This document shows, piece by piece, positions 701-53,884 of a stretch of DNA of 64,000 bases. Made by a program: the position numbers and the translations under genes. The stretch is from a virus (Duplodnaviria; Caudoviricetes): positions 14,282-78,281 of IMG/VR virus record IMGVR_UViG_2850949226_000003; one strand, written 5' to 3'. Under the pieces are notes generated by a model that worked only from the letters and a program-made list of their open reading frames with translations, ran no database searches and was not told the DNA's origin. The first letter of the stretch is position 1; every line of letters begins with the position of its first letter.

Positions 701-2365
701 ATGAAAACCTTGGATGTTCAGGCGTTGCACAATGCAATTGATCAAACGCTGGAACAATTAAAACAACAGTCAGAAGAAATCGCCAAAGTCAAAAAGGCCG
801 TTGAGGGCATCACGTCTCTTGACGATGCGTTAAAAGGAAAAGGCGGCGACGCGATCCGTGCCTTTTACGAGGAATGTCATACCCCATTCTTGAAGTTCTT
901 TGAATCCTTTATCGAGGAATATCAGTCAGCCTTGAAAAAAATGAAAAAAGAGCTTCAATCATTGGAACCGAATCATAACGGATTTATTTCACAAGCCTTT
1001 CTCGAACACGAATTGGAACAAGGCTTGAACGCGGCCGATCGAACAACAAAAAACCTGGTGTCTAAAGCCAACGCTACGATCGCAAAAGTCAGCCACATTG
1101 TCGATTTGCCTGATTTGAATGACACCGATTTTCATGAACAAAATCGAAAAGCGATGAAAGATATCAATCAAACGATCGAAAAACTCCATACCTTCGACCG
1201 CGAACAGACTAATGCGCTAAAAACAGCCGAAAATGATCTTGAGACGATGCAAAAGTACATTACAAGGCTCGAGAAAATGTATACCGGGCCTAAAATTGAA
1301 ATCACCGGCTATCAAAAAGGATCGATTTCAAAACCAGAAGAAAACGCGAACATCAACGGACCTGTCGGCGGCCTTCAAGGAGAGCTGGAAAATGCCGAGC
1401 CATCTCCGATGGAAGTCATGCTGAAAAAACTGTCCGATCAAGAAGACTCTGAAGTCGATTCACTGGCCAAAGCAGACCGTTCCAAAAAGATCGATACAGG
1501 TATTCGCGTCATCAATGGCAGAGTGTATAATATGAAGGGGTACAAAAAGCTCGGTTCTGTCGATGTCACCGATGAAATCGGTACAGGCAAGGAATTCGTC
1601 GGCGGTTCATACACGCTTTATTCAAACGGTCAAATTGTTCGGAAGTACATATCCGGCGGTGAAGTGAAGTACGAGCTTGTCAGACGCATACCTGAAAATA
1701 GGGTGAAGAAAAGCGACATTGAAAAAGCCTTTGATTGGGCTAAAGACACAGTTGGAGAGTTGTCCGGTGGATATGATGGTTACAGAGCGATAACAGGTGT
1801 TGATCCTGTGACCGGCGAAAAACTATCTGTCACTGACCGTATCCTGTCCGGTGTTTCTGTCATACCCGCTACTAAAGTAGTCAAGGTAGGAAAATACGTT
1901 TTTAAAGCGAATAAAGGTGCGAAAACGGTTAAAAAGGTTTCAAATGTTGAAAAGAGCGCTAAAGGTACTAATAAATCACTATTGCCTAACGAAGGAAAAG
2001 TTGGAACGTATAAAGAACTGATTAAACAAGGTACTGCCTTTGATAATATTACTCCTCACCATATGCCGTCTGCCGCTAAAATGAAACAGTCGGGTATAAA
2101 AAGGAACAATGGTATTAGTATGAACATGGAACAACCACATCCTGGCACCGGAGGTAGACATCGTGAGACATATACCTATGGTTTATCAGGTCAAAAATTG
2201 AATGATTATCTAAAACTTGGTTACCGCGATGCTTTAGCTCATGATATTTGGGATGCTCGGAAAATTTATATAAAAGATGGTTTATACAATTCACAGGTAA
2301 AACAAGGTTTAAAAGACGTAATGAAGAAAAATAGAGAGCAATACCCACATTTATTTGATAAGTAA
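701..2365 (+). CDS. LXG polymorphic toxin (T7SS substrate) with PT-TG pre-toxin motif and C-terminal HNH/EndoVII-type (Tox-SHH-like) nuclease
   Basis: N-terminal MKTLDVQAL...DDALKGKGGDAIR (LXG); GYDGYRAITGVDPVTGEKLS (PT-TG); C-terminal PHHMPS...GGRHRET histidine motif; RBS AGAGGAG. Confidence 0.9.
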   Translation: MKTLDVQALHNAIDQTLEQLKQQSEEIAKVKKAVEGITSLDDALKGKGGDAIRAFYEECHTPFLKFFESFIEEYQSALKKMKKELQSLEPNHNGFISQAFLEHELEQGLNAADRTTKNLVSKANATIAKVSHIVDLPDLNDTDFHEQNRKAMKDINQTIEKLHTFDREQTNALKTAENDLETMQKYITRLEKMYTGPKIEITGYQKGSISKPEENANINGPVGGLQGELENAEPSPMEVMLKKLSDQEDSEVDSLAKADRSKKIDTGIRVINGRVYNMKGYKKLGSVDVTDEIGTGKEFVGGSYTLYSNGQIVRKYISGGEVKYELVRRIPENRVKKSDIEKAFDWAKDTVGELSGGYDGYRAITGVDPVTGEKLSVTDRILSGVSVIPATKVVKVGKYVFKANKGAKTVKKVSNVEKSAKGTNKSLLPNEGKVGTYKELIKQGTAFDNITPHHMPSAAKMKQSGIKRNNGISMNMEQPHPGTGGRHRETYTYGLSGQKLNDYLKLGYRDALAHDIWDARKIYIKDGLYNSQVKQGLKDVMKKNREQYPHLFDK

Positions 2366-2386
2366 AAATGGAAAGGGTGGGATTAT

Positions 2387-2848
2387 TTGGATATTAAGCC
2401 GGATTTGAAAAAAATATATGAAAACCGTTTGTTGGAAAGTGAAGATGAAGTACAAGAGTTTGAAGAGTCCTTGGCAAAGGTTCTTGATTATGGAGACGTA
2501 TCGGTTATCCCAGATTTATGTAGGGCTTTCGATGACGATACTGAACAATTCGAGGTTATGTTTGGCTTAGTTCACGGAATTGAGAGGTTATACAAAAATA
2601 ATATAGAAGAAGGACTAACTTACATTGCTATAGCTGTTCCAGAGCTTCTTAGCCGAGCTGAAGAATGGGTTGAAATCTTACATTACAGGATTCTCAACCA
2701 TCCTGAAGTAAGATTAGCTTATCGTAATGTGTTATCAAAACTTGATTCATCAATAGTTGTTAATATTAAAGATTTATTAACTGAAATAAAGAATGAGGAC
2801 CCTGATATGTTTAGTGTGTCTGTAGATGAAGTAATTAGTGATATCTAA
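2387..2848 (+). CDS. Imm30-like immunity protein
   Basis: Directly downstream of the toxin; acidic helical protein with NRLL...LC..FDD.TE..EVMFGL.H.IE signature. Confidence 0.8.
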   Translation: MDIKPDLKKIYENRLLESEDEVQEFEESLAKVLDYGDVSVIPDLCRAFDDDTEQFEVMFGLVHGIERLYKNNIEEGLTYIAIAVPELLSRAEEWVEILHYRILNHPEVRLAYRNVLSKLDSSIVVNIKDLLTEIKNEDPDMFSVSVDEVISDI

Positions 2849-2900
2849 ACCTTGGTTGGCTTTGTCCTTTCAAGGTTTTTGTTAAGGATGGGGGAAATTT

Positions 2901-3365
2901 TTGAATATCCAAACAGAGTTGAAAAAATTAAGAGATAATCGGTTACTAAGAAATTCTGATGAAATAAATGAATTCGAATCGGCCATCGCTAACATTGTTG
3001 AATTAGAGGATGCAGACCATATTGAATACTTGTGTCAGGGATTCGATGATTCTACAGAAGAGGATGAAGTTATGTTTGGTTTGATCCACGCTATTGAATC
3101 ATATGATAACAAATTTGACGGAGAGATAACTTTGAAGAAGTTCGCTGAGGCTGTTCCAAGTATGTTGCCTCACCCTAAAGAATGGTCAAAAATTATGCAT
3201 AAGAGAATTTTAAATCATGAACCTTCTAGGATCACTTATTCAAAGATCATCAAAGAACTTGATAAAGAAATCCAATCTAAAATCGTTGACCAGTTAGTTG
3301 AAATTAAAAACAAAAATCCTAAACGATTTGAAGCGAGCGCTAACCAAATTATCGAGCATTTATAA
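2901..3365 (+). CDS. Second Imm30-like immunity paralogue
   Basis: Aligns by eye with 2387..2848 (NRLL, LCxxFDD, EVMFGL.H.IE, H.RILNH). Confidence 0.8.
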   Translation: MNIQTELKKLRDNRLLRNSDEINEFESAIANIVELEDADHIEYLCQGFDDSTEEDEVMFGLIHAIESYDNKFDGEITLKKFAEAVPSMLPHPKEWSKIMHKRILNHEPSRITYSKIIKELDKEIQSKIVDQLVEIKNKNPKRFEASANQIIEHL

Positions 3366-6537: not shown

Positions 6538-7387
6538 ATGAAAGGTATTGCAAAACTGAATAATTTGTTCTCTAGGATTAAGTTTCTTCCGAAGACGGGA
6601 AATCGACTGAAGCAAACTTTTATTGAAGGGGGCAGAGTGTTGCAACCGACCAAAGCCACGACACTCTACCACCCGGCGCTTCCCAAGAGTGAGAAGCATA
6701 CCAATTATATCATGTTTTCTCTCTTTTTTGCAATTCAGCTTTTACTATCGCCTGTCGTCCAAGCGGCTGATAAATACCAAAATTTCGCGGAATTACAGGC
6801 AAACGAAGACCCTGCAAACTATAACATCGAGAGTGTAAGTCATGATCACTCTGTTCTTATATTCGCTCCGCATGGTGGAGGTATCGAAGGGGGAACAAGT
6901 GAAATTGCACGTCACTTGAGCGCAGGTTATTCGATGTATCTGTTTGAGGGACTAAAGTCTTCTGGAAACTTCGATTTACACATCACAAGTACAAATTTCG
7001 ACGAACCCACCGCATTAAAAATGATCAGCAAACACCAATACGTCATATCTCTTCATGGTTATCGGGATAATAAAGAGCATGTCATTGTTGGTGGCTCTGA
7101 CACCCTGAATGCGGCTCGCTTAACGGAGATTTTAAATGATGCAGGAATTTCAGCAGAACATAGAACAAGCGGCTCTCTAGCTGGAGTTGATCCGGGGGAA
7201 CATTGCGAATAAGTGCATCACAGGTAAAAGCATCCAGATCGAGATGAGCACACCGTTACGGAAATCCATGTTCGAAACGTTCACATTATCAGGAAGGTCT
7301 GGTTCTCAAAACGAAAGATTTTATTTGTTCACTAATTTATTAACGACTTTCATCAAGGACACTTATGAAAGCGGGGTAAATGAGTAA
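6538..7387 (+). pseudogene. Poly-gamma-glutamate hydrolase (PghP/YndL-like, DUF867) split by a frameshift near 7194-7198
   Basis: APHGGGIEGGTSE, LHITSTNFDEP, ISLHGY in 6538..7212; the C-terminus NIANK...SIQIEMSTPLRKSMF is in another frame (7187..7387). Removing one G from CCGGGGG restores one ORF. Confidence 0.85.
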
Positions 7388-9141
7388 TGTTTACATTTAT
7401 CCCGGCAGAATGGAATATCTTTACGGACAAAACGAATGCAAAAGAAACAACTGATGGTTTGAATGCTGTAATACACGCCGCACAAAAAGCAGGACACACT
7501 GAAATTTTTATTCCTAGAGGGAATTATTTAATTGACGGTGTAAATGAAACAGGGAAAACGCCAGAGGAAGGTGCAGGGATTCGCCCGCCTTCTAATATCA
7601 AAATCCTTATGCACCCCGAAACGGTTCTCAATGTAAAACCGAACGGTTCGTATGGGTATTCTTGTTTCCATCTGGAAACCGTTGAAAATGTCACGATATC
7701 AGGCGGGAAGATCAGAGGGGACCGGTACGAACATGATTTCACAGGGCATGGGGACCTCAAAGAAAAAGATACTCACGAATGGGGATTCGGAATTAATATC
7801 CAAGGTTCAAAAAATATCATCATCGAAAATGTAGACATCACAGGTTTAACAGGAGATTGCATTTTCATATGTGCTAAAGGTCTGCTTAATGTCCCTTGGA
7901 CAGATTACACGCCATCCCAAAACATAACCATCCGAAATTGTATTCTTGATGGATCACGCCGGAATAACATTTCTGTAACAGCCGGCGAAGGAGTTTTGAT
8001 TCAAAGAAATGTTATCACAAACGCAGGAATTAATGATGGATGTAAACCAGGATTCGGTATTGATATAGAGGGGTATGGAGAAGGGGATATTGATTTCGAA
8101 GAACCGAAGAACATCATCGTTTCCAAAAACACTTTTATCGGCAATGTTAATCAGTCAGCCTGTAATTATAACGGGTATGGAGTGGTGTTCGAGGGGAACT
8201 ATTCTGACAATTCCATTTCATACGGGTATGGCACCGACACAGTTCTGTTTGATAACGTATTTAGTCGTGAGGACAAAAAGCAAGTTGCCATAACTGCTTT
8301 AGGGGTTTCTAACGGTAAGAAAGCCAATAATGTGTCTATCAAAGGGAATGTAGTCAAAGGCTTTAGTAGTGGTATAGATGCGCGTGGAAAAGGTATTGTC
8401 GTAACGGGGAATGCACTTTCAGAATTAGGTGGCGTTCCGATATCGACGTATAAAGCTGAAAATATCCTTATAACAAATAATATCGTTCACGAATGCAAGG
8501 GAACTCTGTGCAAGACCTTTCAATCAGGCGATGTTTTCATTCAAGGAAATAAGTTCAGCGATTCTGATGTAACTGCTTTCGAAATTGTGGATTCCGTTAA
8601 CGTTAAATTGTTAATGAATGACATAAGGAAATCAAAACAAGGTTTTAGGATCATGAGTTCAAGTGCAAAAATAATGGATAACATCATCGACTTATCAGAA
8701 CATGAATCTCCGTCATACGGAATTTACTTTGACAAGTTCAGTGATGTAATTATGAAGCGGAATCATTTTGAAGGTCTGCGAAACATGGCTATCTACGGAG
8801 ACAGCAAAGAAGGTCGGAAAGTCGAATTGAAACAAAACGTTATCAAAGATTTCCGGGCCATTATCCCGGTCTATATTGTCGGAGGAAAAGATCATAAAAT
8901 CACAGACAATGACATCACTTTTAATCGTTCTTCGGACGGAGGATACGGCATCTATCTCAAAGATACAGATAACGTTATGATAGCTGGAAATTCTGTTCTG
9001 AATAATTCTCCGTTCAAAATTGCAAGCCACATTAAGACGAACGAGTCGGTTAATTCTAAAGTGATCAATAACACTTTGTGCAAAAGCGGTAAATTACTTT
9101 TGAATGAAACCGATTCAGAGTACGGAAATATATTGATCTAA
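7387..9141 (+). CDS. Right-handed parallel beta-helix protein (pectate-lyase/depolymerase-like)
   Basis: TTDGLNAVIHAA...IFIPRGNYLI start; repeated (N/S)ITIxNxxI units; GDCI and RRNNIS motifs. Confidence 0.8.
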   Translation: MFTFIPAEWNIFTDKTNAKETTDGLNAVIHAAQKAGHTEIFIPRGNYLIDGVNETGKTPEEGAGIRPPSNIKILMHPETVLNVKPNGSYGYSCFHLETVENVTISGGKIRGDRYEHDFTGHGDLKEKDTHEWGFGINIQGSKNIIIENVDITGLTGDCIFICAKGLLNVPWTDYTPSQNITIRNCILDGSRRNNISVTAGEGVLIQRNVITNAGINDGCKPGFGIDIEGYGEGDIDFEEPKNIIVSKNTFIGNVNQSACNYNGYGVVFEGNYSDNSISYGYGTDTVLFDNVFSREDKKQVAITALGVSNGKKANNVSIKGNVVKGFSSGIDARGKGIVVTGNALSELGGVPISTYKAENILITNNIVHECKGTLCKTFQSGDVFIQGNKFSDSDVTAFEIVDSVNVKLLMNDIRKSKQGFRIMSSSAKIMDNIIDLSEHESPSYGIYFDKFSDVIMKRNHFEGLRNMAIYGDSKEGRKVELKQNVIKDFRAIIPVYIVGGKDHKITDNDITFNRSSDGGYGIYLKDTDNVMIAGNSVLNNSPFKIASHIKTNESVNSKVINNTLCKSGKLLLNETDSEYGNILI

Positions 9142-13771: not shown

Positions 13772-14263
13772 ATGATGAAAATGACACCGGGTGTAGGCGA
13801 TTATGTCGAAGTGTTGGGGTGTTCTTATGGCGGCAGGGACATTTTTATCGGAAAGACTGGTGAAATTGTGGAGATCAACAAAGACCGTTCGCCAGCTATA
13901 TATAAAGTGAGAGTTAGATTTGAATGGATTAATCAAGTGTGGTGGTTTAAGTCATCCGAATTGAGGGTTCTTAAAAAAGGTTTGGAAACAATCCCAACTA
14001 AGTTGAATAGTCGTTATGTGGCAAAAGCTTTTTGGATTGGCCACAAGAAAATGATGGAAGAGAAAGTGAAACAATTAGAGGAAGATTGCAAAAAGGTCGG
14101 AAGAGAAATGTTGCTTGCTCTTTGTGATGGCAGTTTCAATATAGAGGACGCTATTTATTGGCACGAACAATGCAAAGAATTATTTGAGATGTACACCGGA
14201 TACAAGGAGAAGTTAGAAAAAGCTAAAGGGGTAGTTGGTGCCGAAGATGAAAAACTCAACTAA
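13772..14263 (+). CDS. Phage protein with N-terminal SH3/KOW-like beta domain
   Basis: GVGDYVEV...IGKTGEIVEI...YKVRV; RBS AGGAG. Confidence 0.6.
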   Translation: MMKMTPGVGDYVEVLGCSYGGRDIFIGKTGEIVEINKDRSPAIYKVRVRFEWINQVWWFKSSELRVLKKGLETIPTKLNSRYVAKAFWIGHKKMMEEKVKQLEEDCKKVGREMLLALCDGSFNIEDAIYWHEQCKELFEMYTGYKEKLEKAKGVVGAEDEKLN

Positions 14264-14939
14264 GATGATGGAGCTATTCAAGAGTAAACCGATCTTTGAA
14301 GAGCTTGCGGAATTGAGGTTAAAAATCGCAACGACAGATGATTTAAAAATAAAGGGCGAATTGGAATTGTATGAAGATCGTATCCGTGAGTTCTCCGTTT
14401 CTTTATTGAAAAGGGTTAAAGCGAGAGAGAACGGGGCATTTGAAGAATTAATGAGTCTCAAGGATATGAAGAATTTTCTTCATTTTTACGCTTACCATAT
14501 CAGGGATTACCATAAATTTAGGTACAGCAAACAAAACGTTCTCCACGAAATCAGATTTCAAATATTTTACCACGTAGTAAACAATTATCGCATTTATAAT
14601 GAACCTCACGAAATCAGCCTATTAATCACAAGTATGAGGAACTGGATCAGACAGAAGGTTAGTGCCGCATTAAAAAACACATACAATCCGAAGGACGATG
14701 AGAAATTAGATCAAGTTTTTTTAGTAGGGGATGCGACGGATGATACAGAGGTTCTTGTGCGGGATCTAATTGACAGATACCTCGATAGAGAGGAAAAAAT
14801 TGTTTTTGAGTTGAAATTCTTTGAAGAGAGAGGCTTCGTGGAAATCGGAAAATTCATAGGAGCTTCGAAAGATACCGCCCAAAGAAGATACAAAAAAGCT
14901 TTAAATAAATTGAGTAAAATATTGTCGAAAGAGTTATAA
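14247..14939 (+). CDS. Sigma-70-family region 4 protein (phage sigma-like factor)
   Basis: LDREEKIVFELKFFEERGFVEIGKFIGASKDTAQRRYKKALNKL HTH; RVKARENGAFEELM resembles the region 2 lead-in. Confidence 0.7.
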   Translation: MKNSTKMMELFKSKPIFEELAELRLKIATTDDLKIKGELELYEDRIREFSVSLLKRVKARENGAFEELMSLKDMKNFLHFYAYHIRDYHKFRYSKQNVLHEIRFQIFYHVVNNYRIYNEPHEISLLITSMRNWIRQKVSAALKNTYNPKDDEKLDQVFLVGDATDDTEVLVRDLIDRYLDREEKIVFELKFFEERGFVEIGKFIGASKDTAQRRYKKALNKLSKILSKEL

Positions 14940-15548: not shown

Positions 15549-16193
15549 ATGTCTGAAAAGCATAACAATCTTCAGGGCGAAGTATGGACCGATGATGACG
15601 ATATTCAATTAGCTGAAACGGTGTTGAGGAGGGTTAGACAAGGAGATTCCGTAATTGATGCTTGCCGCGAGTTTGAAGAAGCCACAAAAGGCAGACGAAC
15701 ATCATCAGCTTCTAAATTCAGATGGCACACAAAATTAAAAGAACGATATGCTGGCGCTTACGAATTAGCCAGAAGGGAAGGGAAGAAAACAAGAGATTAT
15801 AAACGCCGAAAAGTAAACCAAGGCGAACGCTATCAAGATTTGTTGGAAAACGTTTTGGACAAGGATAGTGACAGAGAGATCACTATTGATGATATTTTGA
15901 TTTTAGTCAAAAAATACAAAGAACAAAGTGAAGACAAAGTTAGTGAATATGAACGTTATGAAAAAGAAACCGATAAACTCCGCAGAGAAATCGAAAAGCT
16001 CAAAAAAGAGTTGAAAGATGAACGTTTAGAAAAGAAACAAATGAAAGAAGCTTTAATTGAGGTTGATCGCAACTACAAAAAACTATTGGATGCTCTCAAA
16101 GTTCTGAAGGAAGCCGGAATTCAAATCAATGTTCCCGAACCTGAATCATTCGAATATATAGTCAATAAAGATGGTACTGTAGAAAAAATGTAA
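15549..16193 (+). CDS. RsfA/YlbO(GerR)-family transcriptional regulator
   Basis: WTDDDDIQLAETVLRRVRQG...RTSSASKFRW Myb-like N-terminus plus coiled coil. Confidence 0.85.
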   Translation: MSEKHNNLQGEVWTDDDDIQLAETVLRRVRQGDSVIDACREFEEATKGRRTSSASKFRWHTKLKERYAGAYELARREGKKTRDYKRRKVNQGERYQDLLENVLDKDSDREITIDDILILVKKYKEQSEDKVSEYERYEKETDKLRREIEKLKKELKDERLEKKQMKEALIEVDRNYKKLLDALKVLKEAGIQINVPEPESFEYIVNKDGTVEKM

Positions 16194-17179: not shown

Positions 17180-17953
17180 ATGGATTTAATTTACAAGAAA
17201 GGTACTGTCATTGGGAAGCCGGATGAATTGAGGGTATATCTTTTGAATGATCTTCATTTCGGTTCTGAAGCTGTTGATTATGAGCTTTGGGAAAGGATCA
17301 AACAAGACATTAGAGAAAATAGGCACAGGTCAAGGATTTTAATTAATGGTGATATCATCGAAGGAGTAACCAGACAATCTAAAGGCGATATCTACAAGCA
17401 ACGAATGTCACCAAAGGAACAGGTCGATTTTGCAGTTAGTGAATTTTATGAATTTCGTGATTTGATCGATGCTGTAAACAGTGGTAATCACGATCAAAGA
17501 ATCAAAAACGAAACAAGCTTTGATCCTATCGAGACGTTTTGCAAGGATTTGGGTATACTTGATAAGTACCTGGAGTATGAAGGTATAATCGCTTATAGCT
17601 GGAATAAGTGTTTTTATTCTATTCAAATGCACCACGGATCGGGTGGAGCTTCGACTACTGCTGGTATCATTAACAAAATGAAAAAGATGAGAAAATCCAA
17701 TTGTACTGTGACCTATATCGCTCATCACCACAGGGAAGTTGCTGAACCTTTTATCGAATATTACATTGACCCATTCAATCATAAGTTGCACAAACGAAAG
17801 CATTGGTTCATTTGTGGTAACACAATCACAAAACATGCGGAATACGCAAAGAAATTCGCATATGAAGAGAAATTCCCCTCCCAAGCTGTATTGTTGTTGT
17901 CGGGGAATAGGAAGAACAGGTCGGTTGAAGTTGAGTGGATAAGAAGCATGTAA
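17180..17953 (+). CDS. Calcineurin-like metallophosphoesterase
   Basis: NDLHFG, NGDIIE, SGNHD, HHG and AHHH motifs. Confidence 0.85.
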   Translation: MDLIYKKGTVIGKPDELRVYLLNDLHFGSEAVDYELWERIKQDIRENRHRSRILINGDIIEGVTRQSKGDIYKQRMSPKEQVDFAVSEFYEFRDLIDAVNSGNHDQRIKNETSFDPIETFCKDLGILDKYLEYEGIIAYSWNKCFYSIQMHHGSGGASTTAGIINKMKKMRKSNCTVTYIAHHHREVAEPFIEYYIDPFNHKLHKRKHWFICGNTITKHAEYAKKFAYEEKFPSQAVLLLSGNRKNRSVEVEWIRSM

Positions 17954-17985
17954 AGTTAGGTTATAAAGAAGGGCTAGATAAAAGA

Positions 17986-18016
17986 ACACCGTTCAAAAAA
18001 GAACGGTGCTTTTTTT
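17986..18016. terminator. Probable bidirectional terminator between convergent genes
   Basis: CACCGTTC-aaaaaa-GAACGGTG flanked by A- and T-runs. Confidence 0.7.
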
Positions 18017-18317
18017 ATTTCTCTCTTGTTCTGAAGTCACATGTCCAGTCGTGAAGTAAACCGATATCTACATAATCCTCCAAAGCCTCCACGCTGTTGC
18101 TTTCTAACTCAATCCGGTGAAGAAATACATTGCATTCGTTTCGTTGATAATTAATATGTACTTCTCCTACTTCTATTTCATATGGGTTCTTATATAAGGA
18201 ATCCGCAATGAAATCTCCCTTATGAGGTATAACATTTGATTCGAACTCTTTGTGAAGCGTTCTAAAATCTCGCATACTATCCTTCAAACAAACCTGTTGA
18301 TGAAGCCTGATTTTCAT
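18015..18317 (-). CDS. Hypothetical protein, lone reverse-strand gene
   Basis: Strong RBS AAGGAGGTG before ATG 18317 (MKIRLHQQ). Confidence 0.7.
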   Translation of the reverse strand: MKIRLHQQVCLKDSMRDFRTLHKEFESNVIPHKGDFIADSLYKNPYEIEVGEVHINYQRNECNVFLHRIELESNSVEALEDYVDIGLLHDWTCDFRTREK

Positions 18318-18394
18318 GTCCTTCACCTCCTTTTTTAGTGTTCAAACTAATTATATATTCCTTAAAACTTGAAGTATATTAAAACATTCAAAAG

Positions 18395-18428
18395 TGAGAA
18401 AATATTTCTTTTTTCTCATACTACTGTT
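18395..18428 (+). promoter_or_regulatory. Putative phage late promoter TGAGA-N17-CATACTA
   Basis: Upstream of the structured leader and terS; -10 equals the SigG consensus CATACTA. Confidence 0.55.
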
Positions 18429-18434
18429 CATGAG

Positions 18435-18770
18435 GACTTTTAGTTAAGGGATATCCAATCCTCTAACTTTCCAATATATAAGTGGAAAGTTGATATTTAA
18501 GAGAAGGAAAGGCAGTGGGGAACTGAAGCAAAGGGGCTGTCTGCTCGGATGATGTGGGTTTAAGCCGAGGGATTTAGAAGACCAAGGTCCTACCTCCTGG
18601 CATGGGTAATGTGAAAACGGATCAAAAAACGTCTCGCGGAGTCCGTTGTCGTAATAACGGATAAGGGTTGCCACCTGACAAGAGCACGGAGATAGAGACA
18701 ATGACCGCGTTTAATTGGTTTTGCGGTTAATGCCACTTGCTACGAAAAAATCGTGGCGGTGGCTTTTTTA
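18435..18770 (+). ncRNA. Candidate structured ncRNA or attenuator leader of the packaging operon
   Basis: No credible ORF; GC-richer than flanks by eye; several stems, some with G-U pairs; ends in a terminator. Confidence 0.5.
18732..18769 (+). terminator. Intrinsic terminator just upstream of terS
   Basis: GCCACTTGCTACGA-aaaaa-TCGTGGCGGTGGC-TTTTTT. Confidence 0.8.
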
Positions 18771-18795
18771 GTTTGTTGCGAAAGGAGCAATTAAC

Positions 18796-19473
18796 ATGGC
18801 AAAAAACGAGATCAAATCTTATGTTACATCTGATGGGCAAGTTTTTAAAACAACGTTAGATATAGGTGACGTTGATCCAAAATTATATACACTTAACCAT
18901 TTGGAGATGGCGGAAAAAAGAGTGATAAAAGGCAGTAACAAAAACTTAAAGACGGCTTTAGGTAGTACAAGAGCGTTAGCAAAGAAAAATCAAACTACAG
19001 CCAAATCTCTTTCTGACGCTCAATTTGATGAGTATGGACTCGATCCGTCTATTTACACCAAGAAACAAATCGATTTTGTTCACCAAAAGATCAGAGAATT
19101 CGAAGCGCAATACGAGTCTTCTACGCCTTTTGAAAAAGAGACAATTGGCATGATGGCGGTAACTTTACTAAAAATTACTGAAATTAAAGCGAAAATGATT
19201 TCATCTGATAGTAACAACTACGTGAAACAGTTAAAGGATTTACGCGAGATGTTTTCTAAAATGGCCGAAGATTTGAAGCTTAGACCAAAAGACAAGAAAG
19301 AGGAAGACAGGAGCAAGAACAGAAACTCACTTACAGAAATGGTGCGGAGATACGAAGCGCGGAAGAGAAGTCAACGCAAGGAAACTAGCGATAAAACAAA
19401 AGCAATGGAAGAGATGCTTTCTAAAGTAAGGGTAAACTCGCTGGACGGAAAATACGCCGGAGCTGAAGAATAA
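18796..19473 (+). CDS. Probable terminase small subunit
   Basis: Directly upstream of and coupled to TerL; helical, with MFSKMAEDLKLRP motif. Confidence 0.6.
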   Translation: MAKNEIKSYVTSDGQVFKTTLDIGDVDPKLYTLNHLEMAEKRVIKGSNKNLKTALGSTRALAKKNQTTAKSLSDAQFDEYGLDPSIYTKKQIDFVHQKIREFEAQYESSTPFEKETIGMMAVTLLKITEIKAKMISSDSNNYVKQLKDLREMFSKMAEDLKLRPKDKKEEDRSKNRNSLTEMVRRYEARKRSQRKETSDKTKAMEEMLSKVRVNSLDGKYAGAEE

Positions 19474-21059
19474 TGGATTGGTACAGCGAATGGATTACTG
19501 AAGAAGAAATATACGAAATAATGAACCTCCCTCATGACGAGTTTGAAGAGTACATCTTTGAAATGATCGAGTTTTATCGCGAAAATCCTGTAGAAGCTGT
19601 ATACGACCTATTAGGTCTTGGTTTAACTGAATACCAAAAAGTGATGCTAATTGAATCCTGGAATTCAAAAAACATTTATTGGTGTACAAGCCGTGGTGCT
19701 GGGAAATCATTCATGATGGCTATTCTTGCTTGTTTAAAGATGTTGCTCTATCCAGATGAAGCTATACTCATGTTCGGCCCTTCTTATCGTCAATCATTAA
19801 TGCTCTACGACAAGATCGTAAGTGAAGTTTACAATAAGTCCTTTTCTTTTAAACACGAAGTCATGGAAATGCCTAGGGGATCGATGGGTGCCAAGATTCA
19901 ACTCAAGAATTTGTCTTATGCGAAATTCTTGCCTATAGGCGACGGGGGATCAATTCGTGGTGAGCGTACAACTTTCATCTTTTTGGATGAGGACGCCCAA
20001 CAAGACAAAACGTTAATTGATCGGGTAATTTTACCGATGGCTGTATCTAACTTAAAATACGATCCTGATAATCCTGAAGAGGGATTTCAACCGACTATCG
20101 TTCGTGCCACATCTGCATACTTTCAATTCAACCATAGCTATAAGACTTTCCAAATTCATTTGCACAGAATGGCATTCGATGAGGATTACTACTGCGCTGT
20201 AGTCCCTTATACAATCCCATTGGAAGCGAAACTCTACAATGAAAAGTTCGTAGCCACACAGAAGCGGGATATGTCTAATGATGACTTTGAAATGGAAATG
20301 GGTTGCAAATGGATAACCGGCAACGAAAACGCGTTTATTAGTATGAAATTGTGGGATGAGAACGTTAAATATGACGACACGCTAGAACCCCTTTTCTGTG
20401 GCGAAGGCAATAAGGAGTATGTATTGTTTGCTGATATCGCAAGGTCGGAAGGCGGAGATAACGCATCATTAAAACTATGTGAAATTCGTGGACATCGACT
20501 CGCCGTTGTCAGAGAAAAAGCTTTAAATGGTCAGCCGTATCAAGTGATCCGAGATGAAATAAGAAAATTTCTAATTAAGTTCAATGTTATTGACCTTTGG
20601 ATGGATAAATTAGGAGGCGGTGAAGCTGTGGCCGACTTACTTGCTGAAGATTGGATGGACTTCGAAACTGGAGCTAAACACCCTCCTATTCTTTCTGTTG
20701 ACAGCGGCAGAGGGGATGGGATCAAATTAATCACATTTATTGTAGCGGATACTGCCCTTAACCACAGACTAGGACACCTGGCAAAGAAGCATATTGAAAA
20801 AGGTCACTTCGTTTTCCCAAGACTCATGGACAGACACCCGGAAAGAGAGATGGAAATGGCGTACTTAGACCTCATTATGGTCAAGAAAGAAGTAACCAAT
20901 ATACAAGCTGTGCCGGCAGGAAATTTCCATAAATTCGTGCCTACCAAGGGGTCAAAGCTTCGAAAAGACCGTTGGACAACCTTCTGTTATGCCGCGCTTT
21001 ATATCGAAGAAAAATTGATAAAAAAAGAAGAGGACGAACTATTGATTGAAATCTTCTGA
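19473..21059 (+). CDS. terL: Terminase large subunit
   Basis: SRGAGKS, IRGER..FLDE, RNase H-like ADIARS.GGD, MDKLGGG and RKDRW. Confidence 0.92.
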   Translation: MDWYSEWITEEEIYEIMNLPHDEFEEYIFEMIEFYRENPVEAVYDLLGLGLTEYQKVMLIESWNSKNIYWCTSRGAGKSFMMAILACLKMLLYPDEAILMFGPSYRQSLMLYDKIVSEVYNKSFSFKHEVMEMPRGSMGAKIQLKNLSYAKFLPIGDGGSIRGERTTFIFLDEDAQQDKTLIDRVILPMAVSNLKYDPDNPEEGFQPTIVRATSAYFQFNHSYKTFQIHLHRMAFDEDYYCAVVPYTIPLEAKLYNEKFVATQKRDMSNDDFEMEMGCKWITGNENAFISMKLWDENVKYDDTLEPLFCGEGNKEYVLFADIARSEGGDNASLKLCEIRGHRLAVVREKALNGQPYQVIRDEIRKFLIKFNVIDLWMDKLGGGEAVADLLAEDWMDFETGAKHPPILSVDSGRGDGIKLITFIVADTALNHRLGHLAKKHIEKGHFVFPRLMDRHPEREMEMAYLDLIMVKKEVTNIQAVPAGNFHKFVPTKGSKLRKDRWTTFCYAALYIEEKLIKKEEDELLIEIF

Positions 21060-24975: not shown

Positions 24976-25047
24976 TCTCTAACCAAAACGGGGAGTTTTT
25001 CTCCCCATTAGTTTTAAAATAAAGTAATGAAAAGGAGAAGGTAAGGG

Positions 25048-26768: not shown

Positions 26769-26835
26769 AAATAAATTTAGGGGGAAGGGCTATCGCTCTT
26801 CCTCTTTTTAAATTCCGTGGAAAGGACGATCGGGA

Positions 26836-28223: not shown

Positions 28224-28306
28224 TATTGAACTACTAGGGTAGGGGTAGGCGCTTATTTAATATGCCTATCCCTATTTTTGTATCTAAAAGAGAAAGGAGT
28301 ATCGAG

Positions 28307-39000: not shown

Positions 39001-40180
39001 CACAACAGATGTTTATCCTGTTGTATTGACTATATCTGAATTAAAAACTGAATTAGGGGATAAAGCTACAGATTGGTCGCCCGCCCCTGAAGATGTGAAT
39101 CAACAATTCGATTGGTTAGCAACGAGGATTTCTAATGCTGAATTGAAAATCGATGACGATTCTATAATCAGCACTGTTACATCATCTATAACATTTCAGA
39201 ACGCTCTTGATACAAAAGCCGATGCGAGTGTTGTTGGTGATATGGCTACTAAAGAAGAAGTTGATGAAAAGATTGGATCAATTGATTTCGAAGGTGAAAT
39301 AGACACCAGGTTGCAAAATCTCTCGGAAGACGAGAACAGCATGTTAAACCTCACCTATGCAACCAAATCGGAGTTAACCCAAACATCGGAAGCGATCACA
39401 TCGAAATTCTCTGCTACCGGCGGAATGAATTTGATTAGAAACTCTATAGGATATGCAGAGTTCGACTTTTGGACCGCGATTGGAGCGACTAGGATTGAGT
39501 CGTTTTCTGATCCTACTTTAGATACTTTAGGATTTGGGCATGGATTTAAGTTTACTCCAGGAGCATCAGCGAGTTCTTTATCCCAGGAAATGACGGTTAT
39601 TGCAGGACAAGAGTATACGCTTTCCTGGTATGGCAATAAAATAAACAACACAATTTCAGGAGATGGCAGAGTAGCGGTTCAAATATTAAACGAAGACGGA
39701 ACGGCACTTCATACGCGTTGGTATCAACATACAGATTTAACTCAAGGTTACGAACCAGATAACTTTGTTTTCATTCCTAATAGCAATAAGGTAACTGTAA
39801 GAATTTATTGTTACCAAGATGCTGAATTTTCTATAACTGGTTTGATGTGCGGGATCGGAGATATAGCACTTCAATGGTCATTAGCAACCGGAGAGTTGTA
39901 CAACACCAATGTAAGAACTGACATTAACGGTATACGAGTTTCGAGGATCGAAGATGAAGAGGTTGTTGGGTACACAAATATGACCCCGGAAGAGTTTGCC
40001 GGTTATTACACAGACGGAAACGGCGGATATGAGAAGGTTTTCTATCTTAACCAAGATGAAACCGTCACGAAGAAATTCAAAGCAATGACAGAGTTTACAA
40101 TGGGATCGATAAAAGTGATTAACGTCAAAGGCGGCGGGAATGATGGTTGGGCGTTTGTTCCGACTGTACCTGAAGAATAA
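36071..40180 (+). CDS. Tail tip/baseplate hub protein with carbohydrate-binding modules
   Basis: AESSITQNA.EI.L.V repeats; IGGRNL...ELGDKATDWSPAPED; GGMNLIRNS. Confidence 0.8.
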   Translation: MRGRLDLTTRFPVMKVVVDFDNVGFGYMEKWTDITDYVLDVSGSKEKESEVLGGVSSDIVTLTVDNSENKFSVDNPNSLFYKKSKSNLRFALLTGFKGEYLTPYVVGYIHSMQPRWKSKEYLLKATCPMEKLKRADVPEQTFYNVSWDDLVNALLDQAGIEPYFLREIPKTELFYKYFKFEENKCFDALKKLMEVVAGQSFFDGRYFKTITKLAINYTEDRSHKHEITVSDLFEFEEIIDDNSIINKVSIISEPKEIAPLQVVWETPENFVGVQNEQVFYDGTDYVYIDINNRPLFWDDSHEITIKNLTNGIDITWEVYNAELGRIKLTAEGKGYCNPGDLLSVSYTYQYLVLLPGQERKYVAQTDEVIDVFLEPDIVAWNADATEQVEYSSTPDIPNTLSKQSMTVKEDGTIVELVLKNNTSDKVSISTLQFRGYPVRVLNPIEVYNKDKESIEQNDTKEVNITNNYINNIKLAEKLSQFIVENKANIKKELNIQINGYSELLLNDVALVTEEASGTNHLLTIERINFTFGVNSGWTADLTVLEVPTNDWSYDGFLGDSYTSPQKGTPSSTQPYHKGTEPPSDTSLFWVDTSVNPNVTKVYDQASGQWVKANPTTPEEIGAETPQGAQDKADKAKWDAIDYTDTEVAKREMAMFKQPTPPEKPVLNQIWIDTSGEMQIFKRWNGTDWQPIGPVTAGDLDTYTSIEIDNALKTKVGQTEFNEVEERLSLAESSITQNAGEIALRVKQDTYDMDIGNLRSRLSSAESSITQNANEIELKVSQDGVISAINQTAEQIQIEASKINLVGAITLNSFSSELLTDFNSKAEQSYVNQKVNDLQIGGRNLTPNSTGKFLDEETSIPVGWSLWGTAEDLTSSTEDVRGADASVKVTATADQGGVMAPVTEVQRGKVYTISFYVKVDKPALIGYLLKFFDEQGVEIDPIQIESQTLAANEWMHYKQTFIVPMTAATMRATPIVYSTTDVYPVVLTISELKTELGDKATDWSPAPEDVNQQFDWLATRISNAELKIDDDSIISTVTSSITFQNALDTKADASVVGDMATKEEVDEKIGSIDFEGEIDTRLQNLSEDENSMLNLTYATKSELTQTSEAITSKFSATGGMNLIRNSIGYAEFDFWTAIGATRIESFSDPTLDTLGFGHGFKFTPGASASSLSQEMTVIAGQEYTLSWYGNKINNTISGDGRVAVQILNEDGTALHTRWYQHTDLTQGYEPDNFVFIPNSNKVTVRIYCYQDAEFSITGLMCGIGDIALQWSLATGELYNTNVRTDINGIRVSRIEDEEVVGYTNMTPEEFAGYYTDGNGGYEKVFYLNQDETVTKKFKAMTEFTMGSIKVINVKGGGNDGWAFVPTVPEE

Positions 40181-45894: not shown

Positions 45895-45952
45895 CACTCC
45901 CTATTCGGGAGTTTTTTTATTATACTAATAGGTGGAATTAAGGAGGTACATA

Positions 45953-53123: not shown

Positions 53124-53816
53124 TCATGAAGCATATTGCTCCCATAGTGGCCTAACTTTTTTGAGCAATCTTGAAACATGAACTTGTGAGATGCCAACGA
53201 TTTCTCCAATTTCTCTTTGAGTCAATCCTTCATTCATTGCTAGTTCAAGGACCGACCTAGTTCTGCCGTCTAACGTTTCCATGAACTCATTTACGATAAC
53301 GGAAGAATAATCTTCAAATGTTTTTAATGTGTCACCAAGGGTAAAGGCTGAATCCTCTGAATGACTATCATCAAAAACTTTTTTGTTTATAGATAGTGCC
53401 CGATCTCTTCCGTACCATTCCATAGCTCTTTCGACGAAACGTAGTTCAACTCCAATTTTCTCTGCAATAACTTCATTCGGTTCTTCTTCGAGGTCAAGTT
53501 TAGCGACGCTTCTCCATACCCTTTTAAAAATGCGAGGAAATTTGATCATAGATTGATCTCTTAGGTGTCTTTGAATTTCTCCGTGCATCATAGGGACTGC
53601 GTAAGTAGAGAATTTCGTGTTGAATTTTTTATTATCATAGTTTTTGTACGCCTTGACCAGACCGACGAGAGCCAGTTGTGTAATATCTTCGTATTCGTCT
53701 GAAGTATTCCCGATCTTGCTGTAATATCTTTTTGCTACATGGTGGGCCAATTTGATATTTTGCTCTATAAACTCATTTAGAGGTATACCGATTTGATCGT
53801 TATAGACTTCTTGCAT
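53124..53816 (-). CDS. SigF/SigG/SigB-type sigma factor
   Basis: NIKLAHHVAKRY, EDITQ...GLVKA, KFSTYAVPMMHGEIQRHLRD, TQREIGEIVGISQVHVSRL; ATG 53816 after GGGGG. Confidence 0.9.
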   Translation of the reverse strand: MQEVYNDQIGIPLNEFIEQNIKLAHHVAKRYYSKIGNTSDEYEDITQLALVGLVKAYKNYDNKKFNTKFSTYAVPMMHGEIQRHLRDQSMIKFPRIFKRVWRSVAKLDLEEEPNEVIAEKIGVELRFVERAMEWYGRDRALSINKKVFDDSHSEDSAFTLGDTLKTFEDYSSVIVNEFMETLDGRTRSVLELAMNEGLTQREIGEIVGISQVHVSRLLKKVRPLWEQYAS

Positions 53817-53884
53817 TTTCAATCCCCCATTTTTTATATTTAGCATTCCAACCGCGGGTTCCTTGGTCCAGAATTAGAATCTTT

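Follow-up and report, generated by a model that had tools for sequence, protein, structure and literature searches.

An uncatalogued, conserved and structured RNA is, as judged from sequence comparison, encoded on the + strand between a putative promoter and the gene terS (named by position only) in the DNA of a temperate Bacillus phage. The stretch analysed, referred to as the window, comprises 64 000 nucleotides (nt), bases 14282-78281 of a 78-kb provirus record (IMG/VR IMGVR_UViG_2850949226_000003), and belongs to a ca. 80-kb siphophage of the Slash/Basilisk type. The core of the RNA is a double hairpin of ca. 68 nt (18504-18573), which is followed by a strong intrinsic terminator (18732-18769). 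It is proposed that both lie in the leader of the late operon, and that RNA polymerase, by virtue of the double hairpin, passes the leader terminator as well as the internal terminators of the late block; a probability of about 0.4 is given to this reading.

Double-hairpin core

Related leaders were collected by searching viral, genome and metagenome contigs with the terS-like and large terminase proteins. The terS-like family proved to be rare (16 clusters in a collection of 5.8 billion proteins, one of them named Priestia megaterium); relatives P0003-P0009 are 72-82 % identical in terS. Leaders bearing the element were found only on L002 and L003, which are contigs of one metagenome (terS ca. 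81 % identical), and on L128, which stems from another sample and is nearly identical to L003. The comparison covered three distinct leader sequences, that of the window and those of L002 and L003, of which the latter two share a metagenome of origin. When the window was aligned with L002 and L003 by blastn, the exonuclease gene matched at 77 %, an island of 64-69 nt (18501-18567) at 78 % and the sequence from the terminator onwards at 72-73 %; the rest of the gap stayed unaligned. By this comparison the core and the terminator are, besides the putative promoter block described below, the only parts of the gap that are conserved in the three distinct leaders.

The core was located with a covariance model, R1, which was trained on L002 and L003 alone, with the window excluded. 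R1 found the window copy (18504-18573, + strand) at 43.6 bits (E 1.2e-10 in 110 kb), with all P1 pairs kept and one G·G mismatch in P2. Hairpin P1 pairs GGCAGU (18511-18516) with GCUGUC (18536-18541) around a 19-nt loop (18517-18535) that is G-rich and nearly invariant. Hairpin P2 (18542-18548/18565-18571, + strand as P1) encloses a nearly invariant 16-nt loop (18549-18564) and has five solid pairs, CUCGG/CCGAG (18544-18548/18565-18569). The same two hairpins make up the single-sequence centroid fold of each of the three leaders, and RNAalifold predicted the same P1 and P2 helices.

In the alignment of the three distinct sequences fitted with R1, standard pairs occupied 94.9 % of the 39 pair cells, and five of the 13 pairs were changed on both sides; among 500 column shuffles no more than 2 equalled these values. 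As a control the partners were shifted by 1-3 columns, which left 0-1 both-sided changes and 18-56 % pairing. All six pairs of P1 are kept in all three sequences, two of them changed on both sides and one on one side; in P2, three of the seven pairs are changed on both sides and 90.5 % of the cells are paired. In P1, for example, a C-G pair of the window corresponds to U-A in the relatives, and in P2 a U-A pair corresponds to C-G and a C-G pair to G-C. The loops vary less than the stems, as would be expected if a partner reads the loops. P1 is closed by a U·G pair in all three sequences, and the window has two further G·U pairs; such pairs in the core stems indicate an RNA read from the + strand, as an earlier note on this DNA had suggested on the same grounds.

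These data bear on a reading at the level of DNA, in which the region would be a pac/cos packaging site or the operator of a regulator and the inverted repeats would be protein-binding sites. The place directly upstream of terS is a common pac position, and direct repeats occur at the same position in the related locus L130. However, the stems covary rather than stay fixed and contain G·U pairs, which would be A·C on the other strand and do not fit protein-binding DNA repeats; the core occurs only once in the 78-kb virus record; and the direct terminal repeats of Slash (567 bp) are placed where its record begins, ca. 12 kb from the terS-like gene (PMC3861416). The chance that a DNA site explains the element is considered very slight.

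Terminator upstream of terS

The intrinsic terminator (18732-18769, + strand) has a stem of 13 bp, in which one U is bulged, a loop of 5 nt and a run of six U. With a folding free energy (dG) of -20 kcal/mol (z -5.5; equalled by none of 200 shuffles) it is the sole thermodynamic standout of the leader. It was also flagged by the terminator scan and has the features of an intrinsic (Rho-independent) terminator, so that the strong terminator reported at this position earlier holds. Not one of the 26 stem bases differs between the window, L002 and L003, while the flanking genes are 72-77 % identical. The terminator loop differs among the three phages, many synonymous changes occur in the adjacent terS codons, and the U tract of six U in the window has five in L002. 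Both the U tract and the G·U pairs make sense only for a transcript of the + strand.

The U tract is separated from the ATG of terS (18796-19473, + strand, 225 amino acids (aa)) by 26 nt, which hold the ribosome binding site (RBS; GGAG, 18784-18787) and leave no room for a promoter behind the terminator; every terS transcript must, to go by this layout, cross the leader terminator. Internal late terminators had also been listed by the earlier note. Terminator-like hairpins were flagged by the scan on the + strand at 24990-25006, after the capsid gene, and at 26779-26806 in the late block; the third, at 28240-28279 (+ strand), is a hairpin with a 13-nt loop and T5 that was recognised by reading only and was not flagged by the scan.

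Core and terminator are 22 nt apart in L003, 158 nt apart in the window and ca. 250 nt apart in L002, where the interval includes a 72-aa open reading frame (ORF); this range agrees with action of the core from a distance. A ligand- or protein-responsive attenuator, in which a leader segment would pair with a terminator arm, could be suspected from the short distance in L003 and from GCCACC (18670-18675) in the window, which is able to pair with GGUGGC (18758-18763), as had been pointed out before. This segment is indeed the best partner of the 3' arm in the window, but 32 % of 200 mononucleotide-shuffled leaders held one as good, it sits in the non-conserved spacer, and the pairing is absent from L002 and L003. 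The best duplexes between leader and arm use different segments in each of the three sequences and were equalled by 8-74 % of 200 shuffled leaders. Moreover, an ORF stands between core and terminator in L002, a change from U to C in P1 is compensated inside P1 and not towards the terminator, and no Rfam riboswitch matched at E up to 10. The lack of conserved or above-chance pairing between leader and terminator argues against a classical attenuator, which is regarded as highly improbable. A riboswitch or attenuator with mutually exclusive helices was rejected, no conserved pairing being found that competes with the terminator stem.

Gap sequence outside the conserved parts

The earlier note had proposed a structured RNA of ca. 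330 nt in a GC-richer segment free of ORFs. The composition was borne out, with a GC content of 0.51 at 18500-18699 against 0.28 (18300-18499) and 0.335 (18800-18999) in the flanks, and no conserved ORF was found. The + strand of the gap has stops in all three frames, an 85-aa minus-strand ORF (18444-18701) is without counterpart in L003, and no ORF of at least 20 aa on either strand covers the core in L003. A small-peptide reading of the core was rejected, as the frames are shifted by indels between the window and L002/L003.

All the stems that had been listed are present in the sequence, but the proposed extent of the RNA was not upheld: the fold of the 362-nt segment is within chance (z -1.60; 3 of 100 shuffles as good; z -2.22 for the minus strand of the same 362 nt), and the conserved element is only ca. 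68 nt long. The central region (18580-18729), which holds the multiloop closed by GTCTC/GAGAC, folds no better than shuffles (z -0.69; 45 of 200 as good). Together with the hairpin at 18702-18729 it belongs to a lineage-specific spacer (18574-18731, + strand), which is replaced in L002 and L003 and has no homologue in the compared loci or elsewhere in the window. Descent of the spacer from the ORF of L002 was tried and rejected (tblastn E 0.3 or worse). Of the single stems, TTGC/GCAA around the terS RBS is not conserved, and CAGT/ACTG lies inside loop 1 and is lost in the relatives, its place being taken by the covarying GGCAGU/GCUGUC stem; CTCGG/CCGAG is real, covaries and lies in P2. Since only islands of the gap align with the relatives, the supposed 330-nt RNA resolves into a small number of conserved modules plus replaceable spacer.

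The failure to assign the RNA to a known class persisted when the window was searched with the Rfam covariance models, as the earlier note had advised: Rfam 15 gave no match in the whole window at the gathering score and none at E up to 10 in 18300-18850. The best Rfam match of L003, to BcKCsr2, scored 28 bits where the cutoff is 40 and was carried by the terminator hairpin. ARAGORN detected no tRNA or tmRNA genes in the window.

The ORF between core and terminator in L002 (L002:2212-2430, 72 aa) has its own RBS. It matched the Pfam family Tad2-like (Thoeris anti-defence 2) over the full profile at E 0.0024 and 18.8 bits, below the cutoff of 25, and may be an anti-defence moron that is expressed from the leader ahead of the terminator.

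Putative promoter and leader transcript

Transcription on the + strand that arrives from upstream meets a bidirectional terminator (17987-18008) and then a gene on the opposite strand; late transcripts should therefore start inside the gap. A putative leader promoter, GTGAGA-17-CATACT (18394-18422, + strand), was identified by reading. It matches the sigma-A consensus in 8 of 12 positions, below the scan threshold. The phage encodes its own sigma factors, so that the promoter may be of another type. Its counterpart in L002 and L003, ATGAGA-17-TATATT, matches in 9 of 12 positions and was flagged by the scan, and MAFFT aligned a block of ca. 45 nt around 18394-18435 with L002 and L003. The sole other match to the block in the window, at 45913, has three mismatches and is within chance. 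Just downstream of the putative promoter lies the palindrome GGATATCC (18449-18456), likewise in L002 and L003; it is single-copy in the window and not above chance (at least one copy in 64 of 100 shuffles), and its common position is the sole argument for it. A perfect 9-bp hairpin, AACTTTCCA/TGGAAAGTT (18465-18491, + strand), follows; it is lineage-specific and has no sequence counterpart in L002 or L003.

Public sequencing runs that hold the stretch number 20, of which 8 are RNA libraries. The evidence from RNA consists of assembled contigs only, which give no transcript ends, strand or expression level and whose uncovered parts are uninformative. In a food-metagenome RNA library (X18), contigs of depth 3-12 cover most of 17253-20500, and one of them (18685-19129) spans the terminator, which is compatible with read-through. 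A metatranscriptome (X19) gave a contig at 18589-18781 only, with a depth of 2.4, in a further RNA run (X20) contigs cover small parts of the region, and run X11 yielded no contig there.

A promoter-like block, a conserved structured domain and a strong terminator would also make up a complete small transcription unit, and the terminated transcript itself might be the product, either a small RNA (ca. 340 nt here, ca. 200 nt in L003) or a short mRNA (L002). The core would then be the working part, for example by binding or titrating a protein or by pairing in trans, and the late genes would be expressed by leakage. The confinement of the X19 contig agrees with such a unit, and so does the leader of L002, in which the Tad2-like ORF with its own RBS gives a moron-like layout. 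On the other hand, the X19 contig extends 12 nt beyond the U tract and has a very low depth. The unit is also tied to late expression, as no promoter lies between the terminator and terS, and structural genes usually need high expression, which a terminator of dG -20 kcal/mol would prevent. A stand-alone product is thought rather unlikely.

Proposed read-through of the late terminators

In the reading that is preferred, the core acts on the polymerase that transcribes it. The order of the parts would be the putative promoter (18394-18422), the core of ca. 68 nt, a dispensable spacer, the terminator (18732-18769), terS and the remainder of a late unit of ca. 28 kb. Late-gene expression would require that the polymerase reads through the leader terminator. 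After its synthesis the double hairpin would remain associated with the polymerase during elongation, either by itself or together with a factor of phage or host origin that recognises the invariant loops. The polymerase so modified would resist the leader terminator as well as the hairpins at 24990, 26779 and ca. 28240, which would amount to processive antitermination. Both the connection of core and terminator and antitermination itself are proposals. A processive mechanism is favoured over a local switch on three counts: the distance between core and terminator seems not to matter, no competing helices are seen, and the loops resemble sites that a partner reads.

The earlier note had left a choice between a new noncoding RNA, a cis switch and a processive antiterminator of the put or EAR kind. 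An uncatalogued structured RNA and a genuine terminator are present, and the layout fits the put/EAR-like design; a cis switch based on alternative pairing fails, and the element shrinks to ca. 68 nt. In a bolder version, which appears unlikely, the 68-nt double hairpin would need no partner and, like put, would bind the Bacillus RNA polymerase on emerging and confer terminator resistance along the whole operon of ca. 28 kb. If true, a processive antiterminator made of RNA alone would be described for the first time in a Gram-positive phage, and its sequence would have no relation to put, EAR, conAn2 or canT.

The core might instead be a stability or processing element of the late mRNA, for example by protecting the 5' end or by serving as an RNase site, with the terminator as an insulator that limits basal expression from the prophage. 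Its place near the 5' end of the presumed late mRNA is in keeping with this, and terminators serve as insulators in Gram-positive mobile elements, as described for T1 of Tn916 in the available text of PMC11658703. However, the core of the window lies ca. 75 nt from the presumed start and behind another hairpin, hence not at the 5' end, and a protective stem would not need invariant loops of 14-19 nt. Passage of the terminator at high late expression is left unexplained as well, and this combination is judged quite improbable.

Several observations weigh against read-through by means of the core. The putative promoter matches the consensus weakly (8/12), and the folding energy of the core is no better than that of shuffles (z -0.3 to -0.9). 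The pair counts were taken from an alignment that was fitted to the structure and comprises three distinct sequences; because such an alignment leans to the structure and three sequences are few, the covariation support for P1 and P2 is good but not conclusive. In L130/L131 (terS 57 % identical) the upstream region is wholly different and AT-rich and contains neither core nor terminator. Conversely, Slash, Basilisk and pW4 have terminators in front of their terS-like genes but no core, which indicates that terminators before terS do not depend on the core RNA. Known antiterminator protein families were not detected among the 60 distinct window ORFs scanned (ORFs of <90 aa were mostly left out), and with two phage sigma-factor genes the timing of late expression could be set at initiation alone. 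Finally, the contigs show presence in RNA libraries only, and carry-over of DNA may account for them.

Relation to known antitermination systems

In shape, size and position the core seems closest to the put RNAs of coliphage HK022 (putL and putR), with which it was compared by description only. According to the available text of PMC8632103 and PMC11658703, these are double hairpins of ca. 65 nt which act in cis and enable the polymerase to pass intrinsic and Rho-dependent terminators. The core likewise measures 61-68 nt (the span of P1 and P2, 18511-18571, is 61 nt), and P1 and P2 form two hairpins ca. one base apart in a leader, between the putative promoter and the first terminator. It differs in its Gram-positive host, in preceding a late operon where put precedes early operons, and in its large, G-rich loops of 14-19 nt.

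In host range the closest counterparts are EAR of the B. subtilis eps operon, conAn1/conAn2 of plasmid pLS20 and canT of Tn916, which belong to Bacillus and relatives and serve long operons; they are described in the accessible part of PMC11658703 as cis-acting leader RNAs that carry the polymerase through several terminators. None of these comes from a phage. The core has no Rfam match to EAR, and conAn and canT were set apart by description; canT, as far as that text covers it, needs ca. 340-450 nt, compared with a conserved part of ca. 68 nt here. In the lambda N/nut system (boxA-boxB), a phage protein reads the hairpin loop of a short leader RNA with processive effect (PMC8632103, in the part available). 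A short hairpin leader RNA upstream of the first terminator is common to both, but no N-like protein and no boxA/boxB motif was identified here, and two hairpins with large loops stand in place of the one small boxB hairpin.

By the tests run, the core is a member of none of the families compared. Late control in the Slash/Basilisk group and in Gram-positive phages is usually ascribed to phage sigma factors or activators. Leader RNAs that bring about processive antitermination have been described in one coliphage (put) and, on the Gram-positive side, in a few operons and conjugative elements. In a limited search of the open-access literature no such element was found described for a Bacillus phage. 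New is thus a small RNA motif, present in three distinct sequences of a rare clade and coupled to a conserved terminator. It makes a compact candidate of 68 nt for RNA-dependent antitermination of Bacillus phage late genes, which is credible and easily testable. If the proposal is true, a short, portable read-through module for Bacillus engineering would be at hand; if not, what is left would be a terminated leader of the ordinary kind, found in a rare phage clade and containing a small conserved RNA.

The layout also resembles the late leader of lambda, in which the promoter pR' and the short terminated 6S RNA precede the terminator tR' and the late genes, and read-through is needed for all late expression. 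Q, however, acts via a DNA site at the promoter and not through a structured RNA, and the lambda late leader is not known to contain a conserved double hairpin. No Q-type or other antiterminator family was found in the 52 window ORFs compared with Pfam or the 32 compared with PHROGs (ORFs of <90 aa again mostly left out). Antitermination of the ANTAR type relies on two short hairpins with hexaloops, the second of which overlaps the terminator, and on a protein with an ANTAR domain. This type was rejected, as the core loops measure 14-19 nt, the core lies 22 to ca. 250 nt from the terminator, and no ANTAR domain was present in the scanned ORFs.

Other loci and genome context

Proteins similar to the terS product at 30-33 % identity are encoded by the ca. 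80-kb Bacillus siphophages Basilisk, Bak1/6/10, PBC4, pW4, BCPST, Slash, Staley, Stills and Stahl. In Slash (L134:2434-2473) a terminator, annotated in the record and flagged by the scan, lies within ca. 30 nt of the start of the terS-like gene and follows a SleB-like amidase gene; in Basilisk (L133:2415-2442) the scan placed one at a like distance, following gp30. In pW4 a hairpin and T run just before the terS-like gene were seen by reading only and were not flagged by the scan. It may therefore be that the polymerase reads through into the packaging genes throughout the Slash/Basilisk group. Model R1 matched nothing in the loci of Slash, Basilisk, pW4 and L130, and in L139 the upstream sequence is too short for a judgement on the leader. 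In pW4, ca. 970 nt without annotated genes (L135:1524-2491) separate two tRNA genes from the terS-like gene and contain GC-rich, tRNA-like fragments, for which neither an Rfam match at E up to 0.01 nor an extra tRNA by ARAGORN was obtained. The L130 locus carries several CGGTAAC/GGTAACAT-like direct repeats upstream of terS (L130:2100-2480), without a terminator; they may be binding sites for a regulator or the terminase.

Five motif scans for the core or the terminator returned only the same two viral contigs and chance matches. Among 46 loci from two of the motif scans, R1 retained only L177 (the contig of L003) and L187 (that of L002). A sixth scan with a 15-base motif was too loose (at least 119 stretches), and R1 gave nothing convincing on 100 of these loci (L108-L126 left out), with a best score of 17.9 bits. 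Fifteen IMG/VR contigs (L169-L176, L178-L182 and L184-L186) have a 32-nt match to the loose motif in common; they do not fit the core model and represent an unrelated repeated sequence.

The segment 18330-18800 is 100 % identical to positions 39274-39744 of the Bacillus licheniformis SRCM100027 plasmid pBL027-1 (100.6 kb, NZ_CP021678.1). A blastn search with it found nothing in the phage collection and, among plasmids, only pBL027-1 itself. Given this identity of provirus and plasmid records, the phage may be carried as a plasmid-prophage. The same segment occurs in sequencing runs from food fermentation and compost.

Upstream of the gap, + strand genes extend to 17953 and include a sigma-like gene (14235-14939), a dUTPase gene, an RsfA-like regulator gene (15549-16193) and an exonuclease gene. 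The bidirectional terminator at 17987-18008 (both strands, by scan) lies between the exonuclease gene and a convergent minus-strand gene of 103 aa (18015-18326), which precedes the gap. Packaging, structural and lysis genes then occupy ca. 28 kb of the + strand, from the gap to ca. 46.5 kb. The product of terS matched only phrog_16146 (function unknown) and is without a Pfam family. Its gene abuts the large terminase gene (19473-21059), which matches Terminase_6N, and the portal gene is also adjacent. Replication genes lie on the minus strand beyond ca. 46.5 kb and include the second sigma factor gene (53124-53846). The sigma-factor-like gene at 14235-14939 (+ strand) codes for region 4 only and that at 53124-53846 (minus strand) for regions 2 and 4; together with the RsfA-like regulator they suggest a sigma cascade for middle and late genes. 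Cargo genes adjoin the phage genes, first an LXG/PT-TG polymorphic-toxin-like gene followed by two Imm30 immunity genes (701-3365) and then genes for a poly-gamma-glutamate hydrolase (6538-7212) and a beta-helix protein (7387-9141).

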